From an uncultured Bacilli bacterium (GTDB lineage Bacteria > Bacillota_I > Bacilli_A > RF39 > UBA660): DNA of 64,000 nt. Below are positions 4,236 to 58,384 of this stretch, piece by piece (position 1 is the stretch's first letter; each line of letters starts with the position of its first letter). Below the pieces are notes generated by a model. The model had not been told where the DNA came from and did no database searches. It saw only the letters and a program-made list of their open reading frames with translations. The translations under genes and the position numbers were made by a program. The stretch covers positions 85,756-149,755 of the forward strand of contig CAKOPK010000001.1 in the NCBI GenBank assembly GCA_934099115.1. The letters run 5' to 3'.

Positions 4236-6080
4236 ATGAAGAAGTTGGTAATCTTTATAATCAGTGTTTTAACTTCTTTATCTATTTATAGTGAAATTGT
4301 GTTAAAAGAAATGATTATTGCTTATGATAAAATAAAAGAATTAGATTTAGTACAATTAGCTAGTTTTAGTTATAAAAACACTAGTTTTTTACTTATTGCT
4401 ATTATTACTTGTTTTTTATATTTCTTTTATAATAAATATAAAAATATAAAAAGAGAGAAAGCTTATAATTTTTTAAGTATTATATTTGCTCTTTTATTAG
4501 TGTTTGGTTATAGTTATAGTGTTGTTGGTAATTCTAGTTTAGTTACTGGTTCTTTACTGCTATTTTTGGTATCTATTATTAAAACTATTTCCTATTATTT
4601 GTTTTTGTCTACTATATTAAATTTAATTGCTAGTAAAATTAAGTTAATAGATATTTCTAAAATTAAATTACCAAGTATTTTAAATAAATTTCAAAATTAT
4701 TATGAACAGCATCCTTATAAAACCACTTTACTTGTTATATTAATAGCGTGGTTACCCTATATTATTAGTTTTTATCCTGCTATATTATCTCCTGACCCAT
4801 CTAATCAAATTAAACAATATTATGGATTAGAAACTTCTTATTCTAAAAGTGTTCAATTAATTGATGAAAATGTTTTAATTACTAATCATCATCCAGTTTT
4901 TCATACTTTTATTTTAGGAGGATTTACTAAAATAGGCTCAATGTTAGGAAGTTTTAATTTTGGATTATTTCTTTTTACTTGTTTTCAACTTTTTGTAGTT
5001 ATAAGTGCTATTATATATATGTTAGTTTATTTACAAAAATTAAAAGTTCCTTTTTTATATCGTTTTATTATTTTATTAATGTTTGCTTTTGTTCCTGTTT
5101 TTCCATTATATGCTTTATCTTGTGTTAAAGATACCTTTTTTGGAGCTTTACTTGTATTCTTAATTATAGAATTACATAAGATATTAAGTAATTCCACTTA
5201 TACTAAGAAAGATTATTTTGGATTAACTCTATTATTACTAATTATGATGTTAGTTAGAAATAATGGTGTTTATATATTATTTATTTCTATTGTTACTTTA
5301 ATTTTTGTTGTAAAAAATAAGAAAAGTTCACTTATTTTGGTTTTACTTATAAGTGTTAGTTTATATGAAGCTCATAATAAAATATTACTTCCTAATATGC
5401 ATATTTCTATGGGAAGTATTAGAGAAATGTTATCTGTACCATTTCAGCAAACTGCTAGATATGTCTATTATTATGGGGATGAATTAACTAATCAAGAAAT
5501 AGAAGCAATAGATAAAGTTTTGGGTTATGAGACACTTGCTAGTAGATATAAGCCTAATATTGCTGACCCTGTTAAAAATGAATACAATAAAGATGCTACT
5601 ACTAAAGATTTAAAAGAATATTTTAATGTTTGGTTTCATGGATTATTAAAACATCCAGGGGTATATATAGATGCTACTGTTAATACCGTTTATGGATATT
5701 TTTATCCTAATACTTCTAATTGGTATGTATATCATAATTATGATAAGAGATTAAAAAAGAAAGGTTTTGATTATCACTATAATAAGTTAAAGACTTCAAG
5801 AAGTGTATTGGAAAGTTTTGCGGTTTCTTATCCTTATATTCCAGCTTTAGGAGCTCAAGTTAATATCGGATTTAATATTTGGGTTTATATGTTTCTTGTA
5901 GCATATTTAATTACAGAAAAGAAAAAGAAATATATTGTTTTATTAGTTCCTGCTTTTGTTTTACTTCTTACTTGTGTAGTAGGACCTGTTAATACTTATT
6001 TTAGATATATGTTTCCTCTTGTTTTATCATTACCTTTACTTATAGGTATTATATATCAAGAAACTAAGAAAAACGCATAG
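4236..6080 (+). CDS. Polytopic integral membrane protein (614 aa, more than 12 predicted TM helices); function unknown, possibly glycosyltransferase-like
   Basis: Hydrophobic segments along the whole length; no diagnostic catalytic motif recognised. Confidence 0.5.
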   Translation: MKKLVIFIISVLTSLSIYSEIVLKEMIIAYDKIKELDLVQLASFSYKNTSFLLIAIITCFLYFFYNKYKNIKREKAYNFLSIIFALLLVFGYSYSVVGNSSLVTGSLLLFLVSIIKTISYYLFLSTILNLIASKIKLIDISKIKLPSILNKFQNYYEQHPYKTTLLVILIAWLPYIISFYPAILSPDPSNQIKQYYGLETSYSKSVQLIDENVLITNHHPVFHTFILGGFTKIGSMLGSFNFGLFLFTCFQLFVVISAIIYMLVYLQKLKVPFLYRFIILLMFAFVPVFPLYALSCVKDTFFGALLVFLIIELHKILSNSTYTKKDYFGLTLLLLIMMLVRNNGVYILFISIVTLIFVVKNKKSSLILVLLISVSLYEAHNKILLPNMHISMGSIREMLSVPFQQTARYVYYYGDELTNQEIEAIDKVLGYETLASRYKPNIADPVKNEYNKDATTKDLKEYFNVWFHGLLKHPGVYIDATVNTVYGYFYPNTSNWYVYHNYDKRLKKKGFDYHYNKLKTSRSVLESFAVSYPYIPALGAQVNIGFNIWVYMFLVAYLITEKKKKYIVLLVPAFVLLLTCVVGPVNTYFRYMFPLVLSLPLLIGIIYQETKKNA

Positions 6081-6094
6081 AGCGTTTTTTATTT

Positions 6095-6556
6095 TTATAA
6101 TTTTTTTGTATTTGTTTTTCCTAAAAGATAGTCTGCACTTATATTATATTTCTTACAAATTGTATATAGAAAAGGAGTTGCTATTATGTTTTTTCCCCTT
6201 TCATACTCTGTTATGGTAGTTCTACTTACATTTAAAATTTTGGCTAATTTTTCTTGGGTTAGTTTATTTTCTTTTCTAAATTCTTTTAATCTAGTGCTAG
6301 ATAAAGCTTTATTTATATCTTCTTTTAGATCTTTATAAGTTAGTTCTTTATTAAATTTAAATATATAATCTATAGATACTTTATAGAAATTACATAAAGT
6401 ATTTAAGTGTTTAATGGGTATTATTCTAGTTTCATTTTCATAATGGCAATATTGAGTGTGATCTATTTTTAAAAGATTTGCTATATATATTTGAGATAGT
6501 TCTTTTTCTTCTCTTAAATATCTAAGTTGTATACCATAATTCATAATTACCACCAA
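6095..6556 (-). CDS. Tandem-HTH XRE-family transcriptional regulator (paralog 1 of 3)
   Basis: Two Cro/C1-type HTH units; C-terminal ~60 aa almost identical to the 7974..8426 and 17205..17657 proteins (…LKEFRKENKLTQEKLAK…YTICKKYNISADYLLGK). Confidence 0.7.
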   Translation of the reverse strand: MVVIMNYGIQLRYLREEKELSQIYIANLLKIDHTQYCHYENETRIIPIKHLNTLCNFYKVSIDYIFKFNKELTYKDLKEDINKALSSTRLKEFRKENKLTQEKLAKILNVSRTTITEYERGKNIIATPFLYTICKKYNISADYLLGKTNTKKL

Positions 6557-29189: not shown

Positions 29190-29200
29190 ATTCCTCCATA

Positions 29201-29277
29201 AAAAAAGTGCACACAAATAGGGATTGATGTGGCTGCTATCTTCCGATTCTGACCAGGTTACAATATATTTGTTGCAC
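29201..29277 (-). ncRNA. ffs: Signal recognition particle RNA (short 4.5S-type)
   Basis: Domain IV motif ACCUGGUCAGAAUCGGAAGAUAGCAGCC (compare E. coli ACCAGGUCAGGUCCGGAAGGAAGCAGCC); 5' GUGCAACAAAUA pairs with 3' UAUUUGUGUGCAC; ends in a U-run; promoter-like TTGCTA…TGgTAAATT upstream. Confidence 0.65.
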
Positions 29278-29333
29278 ATATATAATTTACCACATTTTTA
29301 AGTATTTAGCAAGTATAAAATGATATAGATTTA

Positions 29334-54386: not shown

Positions 54387-54420
54387 AAAACTCACTCATA
54401 ATATTTAATGGGTGGGTTTT
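54387..54420 (+). terminator. Intrinsic terminator after the M23 gene; its right arm doubles as an SD-like GGGTGGG
   Basis: 13-bp stem aaaactcactcat / atgggtgggtttt (two G-U pairs), 8-nt loop, T-run. Confidence 0.5.
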
Positions 54421-54421
54421 T

Positions 54422-55231
54422 ATTAAGAATGATTTAATATTAAGAGAAGCATCTTATGTAATAGAAACTAAAAGTACTATTAGAGAGACAGCAAAATATT
54501 TTCATATTTCAAAATCGGTTTGTCATAAGCATTTAAGTATTGGTTTAAAGAAATTAGATTTTGAACTTTATTTAAAGGTTAAGAATGTTTTTTTGGAGCA
54601 TACTAAAGTTAGGCATATTCGAGGTGGGATTGCAACAAAGCTTAAATATGAAAAAGAAATGAGTGAGGCCATGATTATTTATTTTAGAGACAATACCTTT
54701 TATCTTGTTTATAAAGATAAGATTATTGAAAGCACTAGCAAAGATTGCGTTAAGAAAGGTTTTTTAATTAATAAAGATTTGTTTATAATAGAATTTACAC
54801 ATATGCTTAAAAAAGAAAGAATTAAAAGTAAACTATTTGGAAGTGATATAACTATCTTAAAGAATCCTTTTTATAGAGAGTCTGATTGTGCTTTTTTGGA
54901 AAATATTTTTATAGAGTTAGGGTTTAATAAGGTTTTATTTATGGATATGAAGGATGTTTTAATGGATGAGTCTGCAACATATATTGAGATTAATCAATCT
55001 TATTTTGTTGTGTATTTAGAAGATGCTTTATATTTTGATATCAAATATTTTAAAGATATTCCTAAAATACTAGAGTATTTAAAAGATAATTTTAAAGATT
55101 ATGTTATTCTTTTTGGATCATCTTCTCTAATACCTCATATAAAAGTGAATGGCGTTGTTATATACTATTTAGAAAATCCTGCTCTATCTGTTTTAAATGG
55201 TTTACTAAAAGTAAAAAAATGTGATGTTTAA
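54422..55231 (+). CDS. spoIIID: SpoIIID-like HTH regulator domain, continuous in frame with a ~190-aa C-terminal extension; no canonical start codon (ATT at 54422 after GGGTGGG)
   Basis: IKNDLILREASYVIETKSTIRETAKYFHISKSVCHKHL…RHIRGGIATKLKYEKE aligns with B. subtilis SpoIIID. No ATG/GTG/TTG in frame between the stop at 54386 and TTG 54593, and no stop before 55231. Confidence 0.5.
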   Translation: MKNDLILREASYVIETKSTIRETAKYFHISKSVCHKHLSIGLKKLDFELYLKVKNVFLEHTKVRHIRGGIATKLKYEKEMSEAMIIYFRDNTFYLVYKDKIIESTSKDCVKKGFLINKDLFIIEFTHMLKKERIKSKLFGSDITILKNPFYRESDCAFLENIFIELGFNKVLFMDMKDVLMDESATYIEINQSYFVVYLEDALYFDIKYFKDIPKILEYLKDNFKDYVILFGSSSLIPHIKVNGVVIYYLENPALSVLNGLLKVKKCDV

Positions 55232-55300
55232 CATCATATTTTTTTTGACAATAAGAGACAATTATACTATAATTACTTATAGTAACTGGTGTTGGAGTGA

Positions 55301-56005
55301 TTGGATTTGATAAAGTTTATTGTTATTGATGATAGTAAAGAAGAAATTGCACACATTAAAAGATTATTAGGCGAAGTTGTAGAAGAAAATATGGAGGTAT
55401 TAGGTTTTACGAAAATAACTTGCGCTCTTAAAGATGAAATTCAGAATACATCTGAGAGAAAAATATATATCTTAGACATTGACCTTGGAAATAGGGTTAG
55501 TGGTATTAGTGTTGCTAAAATGATTCGTGATATAGATTATGAGAGTGAGATTATTTTTATAACGAATCATGATAAGATGTTTGAAAGTGCTCATAGAGCA
55601 GTTTATGAAGTTTTTGATTTTATTGAGAAGTTTCATGAATTTGATCAAAGATTTAAAAAAGATATTCGGGAAATTTTGAAAAGAAACTTTGATAATAAAA
55701 TGTTTAAGTATAATGCTAATAATATTGATTTAAATATTTATTATAGATCAATTCTTTATATCTATAGAGAAACTGAGGAGAGAAAATTAGTTATTGTTAC
55801 ACTTACTAACACTTATAAAGTTGGTATCCCTATAAAAGAAATGCTTACTTATTTAGATTCTAGATTTGTTCAGTGTCATAGATCTTGTATTGTAAATAAA
55901 GATTATGTTACTGAAAAGAATTTTAAGGATGGTTATTTCGTCTTAACTAATGGTAAGAAAGTTTATATGTTAGTTAAGAAATATAGGGAGGCCTTTAATG
56001 ATTAA
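55301..56005 (+). CDS. agrA: AgrA-like response regulator (receiver + LytTR DNA-binding domain)
   Basis: LytTR C-terminal domain; a second TTG at 55307 has better SD spacing; stop overlaps the kinase start (ATGA). Confidence 0.8.
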   Translation: MDLIKFIVIDDSKEEIAHIKRLLGEVVEENMEVLGFTKITCALKDEIQNTSERKIYILDIDLGNRVSGISVAKMIRDIDYESEIIFITNHDKMFESAHRAVYEVFDFIEKFHEFDQRFKKDIREILKRNFDNKMFKYNANNIDLNIYYRSILYIYRETEERKLVIVTLTNTYKVGIPIKEMLTYLDSRFVQCHRSCIVNKDYVTEKNFKDGYFVLTNGKKVYMLVKKYREAFND

Positions 56006-57269
56006 AATAGTTGCTTTACTTATTGCTTGTTTATTTTCTACTTTTGGTGTTTCATTTGTTTATTATAATTTTTCTGATGCTAAGATACATTTTAAATGGC
56101 CAGTTTATTTACTTTATATTTTAGGCGTCCTCTTTTTAACTTTTGTTAAAATGTTTGATTTAAAGTATATTAGTCTTTTCTCATATTTTATTTTTTATCC
56201 AATATTATTTTGGAAGATAAAGCCATTACCTTTAAATAAATTTATATTTTATGTACTGTTTATTTGGCTATGTGGAACGTTCTTAGATTTATTTTCAATG
56301 CTTATTGTTTCTATGATATCCTTTTTATTTCATTATGATATATCATCTAATATGGATATTCTTACTATTGTAATGTCATTTTTCGTATTTGATATGTTAA
56401 TTATATTGGGCAAGAGCGTTACTGTTAAGAGACTTGTTAATAAGTTATGGAAATCTATTTCTAGTTTTAAATTTGCTGATTTGGCATTAATCTTGTTTTC
56501 AATTTTTACTTTTATAATTGGATATGCAATTTTTTCAAATTTGCGTAATTTAAAATCTGGAATGTTATTAAATATAATTTTGTTACTTGTTTTGTTAGTG
56601 TTTATAGTATTATTTAGATTTAAAGTTTATTCAGCCGAAGAAACTAAATTTTTGGAAACTTTAAAAGAGAATAATGAACTTTACATAAAAACAGAAGAAG
56701 AAAATAGTATTTTTAAACATAATTTAATGGCTAAACTTTTGAGTATTAAATCTGTTTCTAATAAGAAAGCTGCTGCTTTAGTTGATGACTTAATTTTGCA
56801 GTTTAGTAAAAGCATTCATTTTTCAGAAAAAATGAGAGTAGTTCCTTATGGTATTAATGGAATTATCTATCAAAAATTAAATCCCTATTTGGATGAGATA
56901 AATGTTAATATTTCAAATAATGTTCGTTATGATATTTTTACGGTTTTGAAGCCTAGACGTTATAATGTTTTTGTTGAGAAAATGGTTATTGCTTTAGATA
57001 ATGCAATAGAAGCTTGTTTAAATAGTACTAAAAAGATTTTAACAATCGATTTATATGATGAAGAAGATTTTATTGTTATTGAAATTAGAAATACTTTTTC
57101 TAATGAGATTGATATTAGTTTATTAGGTACGAAAAATTATTCTTCAAAAGGTAAAAAGAGAGGTTGGGGAATATTCTCGAGTTTTAGAAACAGTGAAGCT
57201 ATATTAAAGGTAAGTATTATTAATGATCAATTTGTTAGTAAGATTTCTGCTAAAAAGAAAATAACATAA
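55998..57269 (+). CDS. agrC: AgrC-like membrane histidine kinase (HPK10 family)
   Basis: Six predicted TM helices plus a C-terminal GHKL ATPase with N-box LDNAIEA; translationally coupled to the response regulator. Confidence 0.7.
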   Translation: MIKIVALLIACLFSTFGVSFVYYNFSDAKIHFKWPVYLLYILGVLFLTFVKMFDLKYISLFSYFIFYPILFWKIKPLPLNKFIFYVLFIWLCGTFLDLFSMLIVSMISFLFHYDISSNMDILTIVMSFFVFDMLIILGKSVTVKRLVNKLWKSISSFKFADLALILFSIFTFIIGYAIFSNLRNLKSGMLLNIILLLVLLVFIVLFRFKVYSAEETKFLETLKENNELYIKTEEENSIFKHNLMAKLLSIKSVSNKKAAALVDDLILQFSKSIHFSEKMRVVPYGINGIIYQKLNPYLDEINVNISNNVRYDIFTVLKPRRYNVFVEKMVIALDNAIEACLNSTKKILTIDLYDEEDFIVIEIRNTFSNEIDISLLGTKNYSSKGKKRGWGIFSSFRNSEAILKVSIINDQFVSKISAKKKIT

Positions 57270-57321
57270 AAAATAAAGGAACTCAGGAAAGAGTTCTTTT
57301 ATCTTTTATTCTGGGTTAAAA

Positions 57322-57432
57322 TTAGATTAAATCTTCTGGGCATTCAGGCTCATCAAAAATAAACCATAATGTGTAAGGTGCTGCAGTAGCTTTTTCAGCT
57401 GCACCACTTATTAAGTTTGCTAAAAATTCCAT
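57322..57432 (-). CDS. agrD: AgrD-like autoinducing-peptide precursor (36 aa, MEFLANLISGAAEKATAAPYTLWFIFDEPECPEDLI)
   Basis: GGAGGT 6 nt upstream; amphipathic leader; LWF core and acidic tail DEPE.PEDL like clostridial AgrD (C. perfringens …CLWFT HQPEEPKSL). Absent from the ORF track because it is short. Confidence 0.55.
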   Translation of the reverse strand: MEFLANLISGAAEKATAAPYTLWFIFDEPECPEDLI

Positions 57433-57493
57433 TCTTTTACCTCCTTTTTTTCTTCCTTTTGTTTAAATCTATATCAAATAATTTAAACCATGT

Positions 57494-58156
57494 TTATTTT
57501 TTATAATATTTATAATTATTAAATCTGGTATTTGTGATTTTATAAGTTATTGGATTTATCAATATACTTTGTACTATTAGTGAATATACTAATGGGTTTG
57601 TTATTAAATTACTTTTACTAATATAGAAAATAATTGCATATATTAGGACTACTGTAATAGAAAATATTTTACACTTTGTTCTTTGTTTTTTTCTAATAAG
57701 TGGTCTTTTTGGAGTATCTGCTGGAGCCCATAGCATCATTCCAATTAATGAGGCACCAATTATGATATATCCTACTATATCTGAAAAGTTGTAGTTTTTT
57801 ATCAATAATGGTATTACATTATAAATGGCTATTGTGGAAATCCAACACGCTATGTTGCTTTTTGCATGTAATCCAAAGCTAAAAGTACGTATACCAGCAT
57901 AGAACAGTAAAAATAATAAAGTTTGAATAAGAGTATTTGATAAGAGTGCTATTATAAATACCACTGTTAATTTAACAAACAAACTGTAAATTCCTTCTAA
58001 TCCATACCGTAGTTTTTTGATTTTTAAGTCATCACATTCTTGATATTTTTTTATAAAATTGATCGAAGAATTTACAAACTGCTCTTTCATCTTTTTCTCC
58101 TTACTGTAGCTAAAGTATAACGCATCAAATTTAATTAATAAAGCGAATTGCTCCAA
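57494..58156 (-). CDS. agrB: AgrB-like AIP-processing membrane endopeptidase
   Basis: Catalytic His…Cys pair in GLHAKSNIACW (compare HGAHAPSSFWC) and APADTPKRPLIRKKQRTK (compare APAATKKKPIPVRLIKRKK). Confidence 0.75.
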   Translation of the reverse strand: MEQFALLIKFDALYFSYSKEKKMKEQFVNSSINFIKKYQECDDLKIKKLRYGLEGIYSLFVKLTVVFIIALLSNTLIQTLLFLLFYAGIRTFSFGLHAKSNIACWISTIAIYNVIPLLIKNYNFSDIVGYIIIGASLIGMMLWAPADTPKRPLIRKKQRTKCKIFSITVVLIYAIIFYISKSNLITNPLVYSLIVQSILINPITYKITNTRFNNYKYYKK

Positions 58157-58384
58157 GAGATTAATTTTACGTTTAAATGATTTATAATATGGCTTAAGAG
58201 ATACTAAAAGTTATTTTTAAACCAAAAATTAGGGTTTTTAGTTTTTACCACTTTTATTTTGAAAAATATTATGGTATCTTTAGGTTGTCCTAGTAATAAG
58301 AGAATAAAAAATTATTCTTTATATTATGGGTCAGGGGAAGCTTATATGTTATAAGAATTACGAAGTAGAAAGGCGAGGTGTGAT

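Follow-up and report, generated by a model that had tools for sequence, protein, structure and literature searches.

A predicted threonine-closed autoinducing peptide in a convergent agr-like locus of an uncultured gut Bacilli lineage

A 64,000-nucleotide stretch of DNA from an uncultured Bacilli bacterium (GenBank assembly GCA_934099115.1, contig CAKOPK010000001.1, positions 85,756 to 149,755 of the forward strand; hereafter the window, with positions counted from its first letter) carries an agr-like quorum-sensing locus, whose precursor peptide AgrD lacks the Cys that ordinarily closes the ring of an autoinducing peptide (AIP). The locus is probably a functional agr module of two convergent operons, in which Thr21 of AgrD would close a predicted six-residue macrolactone, TLWFIF. 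In all respects that were tested it is an agr system, except for the cyclisation residue and the operon layout. The agr-like assignment of the original prediction holds, with matches of AgrB to PF04647, of AgrC to HATPase_c_5 and of AgrA to Response_reg and LytTR, and so does the convergent arrangement that it described, all four open reading frames (ORFs) being present with agrA and agrC on the plus strand converging on agrD and agrB on the minus strand. The parts of the locus are as follows.

57322 to 57432, minus strand: agrD, encoding the 36-residue autoinducer precursor MEFLANLISGAAEKATAAPYTLWFIFDEPECPEDLI (assigned by TIGR04223, synteny and profile matches).
57355 to 57372, minus strand: core codons T-L-W-F-I-F, the predicted AIP core, with the Thr21 codon ACA at 57370-57372.
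57340 to 57342, minus strand: the TGC codon of Cys31, inside the AgrB-recognition tail.
57439 to 57446, minus strand: strong Shine-Dalgarno sequence AAGGAGGT of agrD, its GGAGG standing 7 nt before the ATG (from reading of the sequence).
57494 to 58090, minus strand: agrB, encoding a 198-residue membrane endopeptidase/cyclase (PF04647, E 5.7e-35; H75, C82 and PADTPKRP).
55998 to 57269, plus strand: agrC-like histidine kinase gene (PF14501, HATPase_c_5, E 1.1e-9; H-box IFKHNL; GHKL ATPase domain).
55307 to 56005, plus strand: agrA-like response regulator gene, 232 residues (PF00072, E 1.1e-9; PF04397, LytTR, E 1.2e-12), with an alternative start at TTG 55301.

The agrD ORF follows agrB after a gap of 61 nt, and its product reads exactly as it had been quoted in the original prediction, with a leader (M1-Y20), a predicted core (T21-F26, TLWFIF) and a tail (D27-I36, DEPECPEDLI). 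It scored 19.4 bits against the NCBIfam model TIGR04223 ('AgrD family cyclic lactone autoinducer peptide'; cut-off 19) and 15.3 against the Pfam AgrD model, below the cut-off of 22.7. A scan with AgrB, taking one genome per species, yielded 22 related loci, all from uncultured gut metagenome-assembled genomes labelled Bacilli, Mycoplasma or Tenericutes and including Candidatus Caccenecus avistercoris (Bacilli incertae sedis), and an orthologous ORF of 35-37 residues followed agrB in 22/22. A profile of the peptide, built from an alignment headed by a 57-residue extended ORF, matched 482 database proteins at E<=1; one family member, CDF11848.1 (Mycoplasma sp. CAG:776), carries the public name 'unknown'. 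As regards a second, canonical Cys-containing AgrD nearby, which would have undermined the original prediction, a six-frame profile search together with a regular expression found no further AgrD-like ORF in the window, the next-best match having an E of 0.84. Thr21 is encoded by ACT in 11 cases, ACA in 11 and ACC in 1, and the tail Cys by TGT in 16 and TGC in 11. These synonymous codons beneath invariant residues indicate that selection acts on the peptide, which answers the concern raised beforehand that the ORF might be untranslated.

Across the 23-sequence alignment the columns A12, T21, D27, E28, P29, C31, P32 and L35 were invariant. In the best 120 of the 482 profile matches, a Thr stood six residues before the D/E-E-P tail in every one (120/120); position -5 took at least 12 residue types, and the four positions after the next-but-one Trp varied freely. 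A small gene adjoining agrB with a conserved, amphipathic leader, a hypervariable core and a conserved, acidic recognition tail is the typical AgrD pattern. An AgrD is expected to carry a ring-forming Cys, or rarely Ser, five to six residues before the cleavage site; here Thr21 stands instead, in agreement with the claim that no Cys occupies this position. The original prediction had, however, placed the ring position five residues before the tail, whereas the nucleophile position that this family conserves is the sixth before it. The tail residues D27, E28, P32 and L35 match the register of D33, E34, P38 and L41 of S. aureus AgrD-I, and the predicted scissile bond is therefore that between F26 and D27. 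In the same register the staphylococcal ring Cys aligns with Leu22, which is variable, and Thr21 lies one residue further out; its position relative to the F26-D27 bond thus gives a predicted ring of six residues. E28 and L35 are invariant in the AgrD family here, and in S. aureus AgrD the residues Glu34 and Leu41 are needed for processing by AgrB (PMC5789755). Six-residue AIP rings without an extension are known from R. cellulolyticum (CWFWSY) and C. acetobutylicum (PMC8251862).

More diverse relatives came from a further search with the profile, in which some 15 billion proteins were clustered at 50% identity and each cluster stood in with a single member. There were 45 matches at E<=1e-3, of which 44 were short peptides with an MxFLANLL leader and a DEPxCPEEL tail. 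The 45th, P0247, is a protein of 2462 residues in which eight short repeated stretches matched profile positions 15-30 (E 3.8e-11), presumably a repetitive Ser/Thr/Ala-rich region and not a relative. Among the 44 tail-aligned representatives, position -6 was Thr in 24, Cys in 14, Ser in 5 (P0249, P0252, P0255, P0263 and P0274) and Arg in 1. Genomic contexts were fetched for three loci with Cys at this position (C-type; L031, L034 and L038, with partial contexts for L027, L028 and L037), two with Ser (S-type; L029 and L030) and three further ones with Thr (T-type; L032, L035 and L036). Wherever the contig was long enough, T-, S- and C-type precursors shared the same slot, HPF-CspA-AgrB-AgrD facing AgrC-AgrA-ORF, and SpoIIID and SpoIIQ followed past the ORF in all fetched DNA that extends so far; L029, L031 and L034 have SpoIIID and an M23 SpoIIQ-like gene beyond agrA. 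These are therefore orthologous loci, in which one residue has been switched among three side-chain nucleophiles. The Ser-type locus uses the codon AGT, and single-nucleotide steps lead from ACT (Thr) through AGT (Ser) to TGT (Cys). All relatives are metagenome-derived, and the C-type contigs include two short ones with low coverage; a Thr-to-Cys change needs two substitutions, however, and the other C-type loci are on long contigs. In a neighbour-joining tree of 32 AgrBs, the 23 T-type species of the window's clade were monophyletic and other T-types branched among the C-type loci, so that repeated switches are implied, as far as a quick distance tree, which is not to be over-read, allows. 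The restriction to Cys, Ser and Thr is what one would expect if a nucleophile were required at position -6, and would be hard to explain otherwise.

AgrB was found to retain its catalytic His/Cys pair and its basic segment, as had been claimed: H75 and C82 stand seven residues apart, the segment WAPADTPKRP is present, and G-x-H-x6-C and PADTxK[KR]P were kept in 32/32 AgrBs. In S. aureus AgrB, H77 and C84, which have the same spacing, are required for processing (PMC5789755). Since the catalytic residues are retained, the thioester acyl-enzyme step is presumably intact. The best 120 of 481 matches in the AgrB homologue search were all close relatives, with at least 65% identity, and this search gives no view of distant ones; no solved structure was detectably related to the window AgrB by sequence. 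The gene almost certainly starts at ATG 58090, preceded by AAGGAG, a start common to all relatives and to independent gene calls, and not at TTG 58156. The agrB start of the original prediction is thereby corrected, and agrA was called from TTG 55307. As a weak correlate, AgrB residue 81 (window ~57848-57850, minus strand), directly before the catalytic Cys, was one of A, G, K and T beside T-type precursors, T beside the Ser-type and W or I in the four C-type loci; it may be a specificity determinant, though the sample is too small to carry weight.

On the sensing side, the locus encodes a polytopic HPK10-type kinase (PF14501) and a LytTR response regulator. The six-transmembrane kinase that had been proposed agrees with at least six hydrophobic segments within residues 1-206 of AgrC. 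Mean pairwise identity among AgrCs was 34% in the sensor, compared with 58% in the DHp and 56% in the ATPase region, and with this hypervariable sensor AgrC appears to behave as the specificity receptor. Distances between core peptides correlated with distances between sensors (Mantel r 0.29, p 0.002), and partial Mantel tests preserved the correlation with either AgrA (r 0.27, p 0.003) or cytoplasmic AgrC (r 0.19, p 0.03) as the control. This modest co-variation points to TxWxxx as the part that would be sensed. The agrA gene has the same 232-residue call in four assemblies of the same species and 60-70% identity in 22 related species. Against the AgrA equivalog model NF046049 the protein scored 41.8 bits (cut-off 400); it is a LytTR-family regulator of AgrA type by context, and not an AgrA equivalog.

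From these data a mechanism can be proposed. AgrB would bind AgrD through its acidic tail, and the H75/C82 pair would cleave between F26 and D27, with the peptide held as a thioester on C82. The side-chain hydroxyl of Thr21 would then attack the thioester to give the six-residue macrolactone T-L-W-F-I-F, and a second (leader) protease would trim the N-terminal leader. Conversion of a thioester into an oxo-ester is thermodynamically favourable, a secondary alcohol being kinetically poorer. Were the leader cut directly before Thr, an O-to-N acyl shift would be expected to follow and yield the all-amide cyclic hexapeptide cyclo(TLWFIF). The computed [M+H]+ is 808.4392 for both cyclic forms and 826.4498 for linear TLWFIF, a difference of -18 Da on cyclisation; forms extended at the N-terminus come to 971.5025 (Y-) and 1068.5553 (PY-). 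AgrC would sense the ring peptide through its hypervariable membrane domain and phosphorylate the LytTR regulator AgrA, and AgrA would act on the promoter upstream of agrB. It is inferred where AgrB cuts, that Thr is the nucleophile, that a ring forms, that the leader is cut off and what the regulon comprises; the regulon may possibly include sporulation, to judge from gene adjacency and clostridial precedents only.

Several points weigh against this reading. As a nucleophile the secondary alcohol of Thr is inferior to the thiol of Cys and to the hydroxyl of Ser, and in the searchable literature AgrB-type enzymes appear to have been described only with Cys or Ser. The match of AgrD to the curated models is marginal, just over the cut-off of TIGR04223 and under that of Pfam. 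The predicted cleavage site comes from alignment alone, the host is uncultured, and the proposed chemistry of the product is read from sequence. The Mantel correlations are modest and are based on five variable residues, and no clear operator with LytTR direct repeats was found upstream of agrB or agrA. Lastly, the model assigns no role to the near-invariant tail Cys.

The original prediction had left three options, a Thr-lactone, a linear autoinducer and a different processing site. Of these the Thr-lactone is favoured, by Thr in 120/120 close relatives and Cys or Ser at the same position in orthologues. A linear autoinducer with TLWFIF at its end, AgrB acting as an endopeptidase only, water hydrolysing the acyl-enzyme and Thr21 being kept for receptor binding or leader cleavage, is unlikely, though the likeliest of the alternatives. 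The window peptide has no Cys or Ser at a plausible ring distance, Thr is a weak nucleophile, and a Thr-closed AIP was not described in the literature searched, all of which would fit a linear signal. Nevertheless, position -6 is Cys, Ser or Thr in 43/44 diverse relatives from orthologous loci, a limit which receptor contact hardly explains given that the other core positions are hypervariable, and both the catalytic Cys of AgrB and the entire tail-recognition register have been kept.

A different processing site, with Cys31 forming the ring and AgrB cutting further towards the C-terminus, so that the signal would hold DEPEC... or a C-P-E-D-L ring, is very improbable. The Cys is, as had been stated, located in the tail and is the only one in the peptide; it is kept in 118/120 close relatives (of the best 120 matches; P0078 and P0098 have Tyr), and the residue before the tail Pro is Cys in 39/44 of the cluster representatives. 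Those 39 include, however, 11 of the 14 peptides that also have Cys at the ring position, and the tail Cys is therefore taken to be neither a substitute nucleophile nor a relocated ring Cys; the comparison shows it to be a clade-wide feature of the tail. In a few T-type and C-type members it is replaced by M, T or A. Moreover, the five residues behind it are too few for a recognition tail, and its surroundings do not vary from species to species, unlike autoinducer cores and the AgrC sensor, which are hypervariable. Its position corresponds to V37 of the S. aureus tail, between residues that recognition by AgrB requires. The tail Cys was thus rejected as the nucleophile, being shared by the ring-Cys members and lying in an invariant segment with a short remainder. 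In P0098 (RTCWFVY followed by DEPEYPEDLL) the change of the tail Cys to Tyr is accompanied by a gained Cys at -5. Separately, the N-terminus of AgrB has a Cys (QEC[DN]D, C19) that is shared by the seven T-clade AgrBs compared in this region and may be a partner of the tail Cys.

The weakest alternative, that the 36-residue ORF is untranslated or the locus decayed to an orphan agrB and a two-component pair lacking a working precursor, could appeal to the small size of the ORF, its score under the Pfam cut-off and the family member named 'unknown', and is essentially excluded by the strong Shine-Dalgarno sequence, an ORF intact in 22/22 species and in hundreds of metagenomic contigs, synonymous codon variation beneath invariant residues within a typical AgrD leader, core and tail, and four genes that are all intact and syntenic.

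As mentioned above, the genes do not form a single agrBDCA operon; agrA-agrC on the plus strand faces agrB-agrD on the minus strand, with a bidirectional terminator between them. This convergent layout was kept in every related locus whose fetched contig extends beyond agrD (the contigs of L003 and L017 stop before agrC). In L012, from a related species, an insertion of ~1.8 kb separates agrD from the 3' end of agrC and carries two ORFs of 301 and 174 residues (positions 4994-6445 of that locus), which by eye resemble a split transposase. The control elements of the window locus are as follows.

57273 to 57302, both strands: bidirectional intrinsic-terminator-like hairpin in the gap between agrC and agrD (terminator scan; 19-nt arms, 89% complementary).
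55245 to 55273, plus strand: sigma-70-type promoter match TTGACA-17-TATAAT upstream of agrA (12/12 to consensus; a consensus match only).
58114 to 58165, minus strand: promoter-like region upstream of agrB, with a -10 box TATACT at 58114-58119 and, upstream of the box, a conserved element.

Twenty-three such regions were aligned, and their conserved columns include the -10 box and the upstream element, whose family consensus TTACTTnnAGCAAAC is degenerate in the window's species; the region is inferred to be a candidate AgrA operator. No convincing 9-bp LytTR direct-repeat pair was found upstream of agrB or agrA. An Rfam scan of the window did not find an RNAIII-like RNA, the sole family above gathering score being the signal recognition particle RNA, a small bacterial form (RF00169, 60 bits) at 29190-29288 on the minus strand.

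Across the 22 related loci, as far as the contigs reach, the neighbourhood was syntenic: SpoIID, SpoIIQ-like, an ORF of ~200 residues, AgrA and AgrC, converging on AgrD, AgrB, CspA and HPF. The locus had been said to sit among sporulation genes, which is so on one flank (SpoIID, a SpoIIQ-like M23 protein and a SpoIIID-like sequence) and not on the other (cspA, hpf and secA). Between spoIIID and agrA the window has an ORF of ~190-210 residues without a Pfam match (54593-55231, plus strand), and this ORF occurs with 38-47% identity in almost all related loci that reach that far. The SpoIIID-like sequence (...ETKSTIRETAKYFHISKSVCHKHL...HIRGGIATKLKYEKE; 54400-55231, plus strand) has no ATG, GTG or TTG of its own, an ATT after GGGTGGG being a possible start, and continues in-frame without a stop into this downstream ORF. 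In related loci SpoIIID (82-83 residues) and the ~200-residue ORF are separate genes, and in the window's species the region has an identical 212-residue call in four independent assemblies. The two readings are a fused gene that uses a non-canonical start and a spoIIID in decay.

One known relative is the agr system of S. aureus, with which the window locus shares an AgrB whose His and Cys lie seven apart, an AgrD tail of the form D-E-x-E-x-P-x-E-L with the processing Glu and Leu, an HPK10-type AgrC with a hypervariable sensor, and a LytTR-type regulator. In contrast, the S. aureus AIPs (AIP-I to AIP-IV) have five-residue thiolactone rings closed by Cys28, while a six-residue Thr ring is predicted here, and a single agrBDCA operon with divergent RNAIII contrasts with agrA-agrC converging on agrB-agrD. 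The clostridial six-residue AIPs (Rc-AIP1, CWFWSY, and the C. acetobutylicum AIP; PMC8251862) come closer in ring size, their ring likewise standing just before an x-E-P...P-E-E-L tail, as is predicted for the window peptide; both cores are aromatic and hydrophobic (xWFxx), and both hosts are spore-forming Firmicutes, sporulation being regulated in the clostridial case. The clostridial peptides are, however, closed by Cys and undergo an S-to-N shift, whereas with Thr the primary product would be an oxo-ester and any rearrangement, expected by analogy if the N-terminus keeps no extension, would be O-to-N. They also belong to Clostridia, in contrast to the convergent agrAC/agrBD genes of this uncultured gut Bacilli lineage.

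Closure through a hydroxyl has its precedent in the Ser-lactone autoinducers, namely the AIP of Staphylococcus pseudintermedius/intermedius, the gelatinase biosynthesis-activating pheromone (GBAP) of Enterococcus faecalis (FsrBD) and a case in Hungateiclostridium thermocellum, as cited in PMC8251862. These systems establish that AgrB-family enzymes can form a lactone with a hydroxyl nucleophile, and Ser-types are also found inside the window's own clade. They use the primary alcohol of Ser, however, whereas that of Thr is secondary. The Fsr/GBAP system differs further, with its nine-residue ring and a precursor fused to or overlapping FsrB; in the window agrD is a separate 36-residue ORF with its own Shine-Dalgarno sequence, and the putative nucleophile lies six residues before the tail.

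Cys is described as the residue that closes AIP rings, with Ser doing so 'in rare cases' (PMC8251862), and a study of 2025 that mined the human microbiome predicts AIP structures on the assumption of Cys or Ser (PMC11953309). A full-text literature search found no Thr-closed AIP; most subscription journals were outside its coverage, and this is absence of evidence only. The invariant Thr predicts a type of ring-shaped signal peptide that would not have been described so far. As the Cys/Ser rule is built into pipelines for the genome mining and structure prediction of AIPs, rules based on it would miss or mis-predict the hundreds of distinct Thr precursors found in animal and human gut metagenomes.

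If Thr closure is true, AgrB-type enzymes would have a wider substrate range than is known at present, with the first demonstrated use of a secondary alcohol by an AgrB. The Cys, Ser and Thr orthologues would then form a natural series in which ring chemistry could be related to signal stability and receptor specificity, and the peptide would offer a synthetic target for probing communication, and possibly the control of sporulation, in an uncultured gut lineage. More tentatively, and on balance doubtfully, a large clade of gut Bacilli may close its autoinducers through Thr, with repeated switching among Cys, Ser and Thr tuning ring chemistry, hydrolytic lifetime and sequence specificity, and with a leader cut before Thr giving cyclo(TLWFIF). 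Were such a cut to occur, the 'enzyme-primed ligation' route of the clostridial Cys peptides would be extended to hydroxyl residues.

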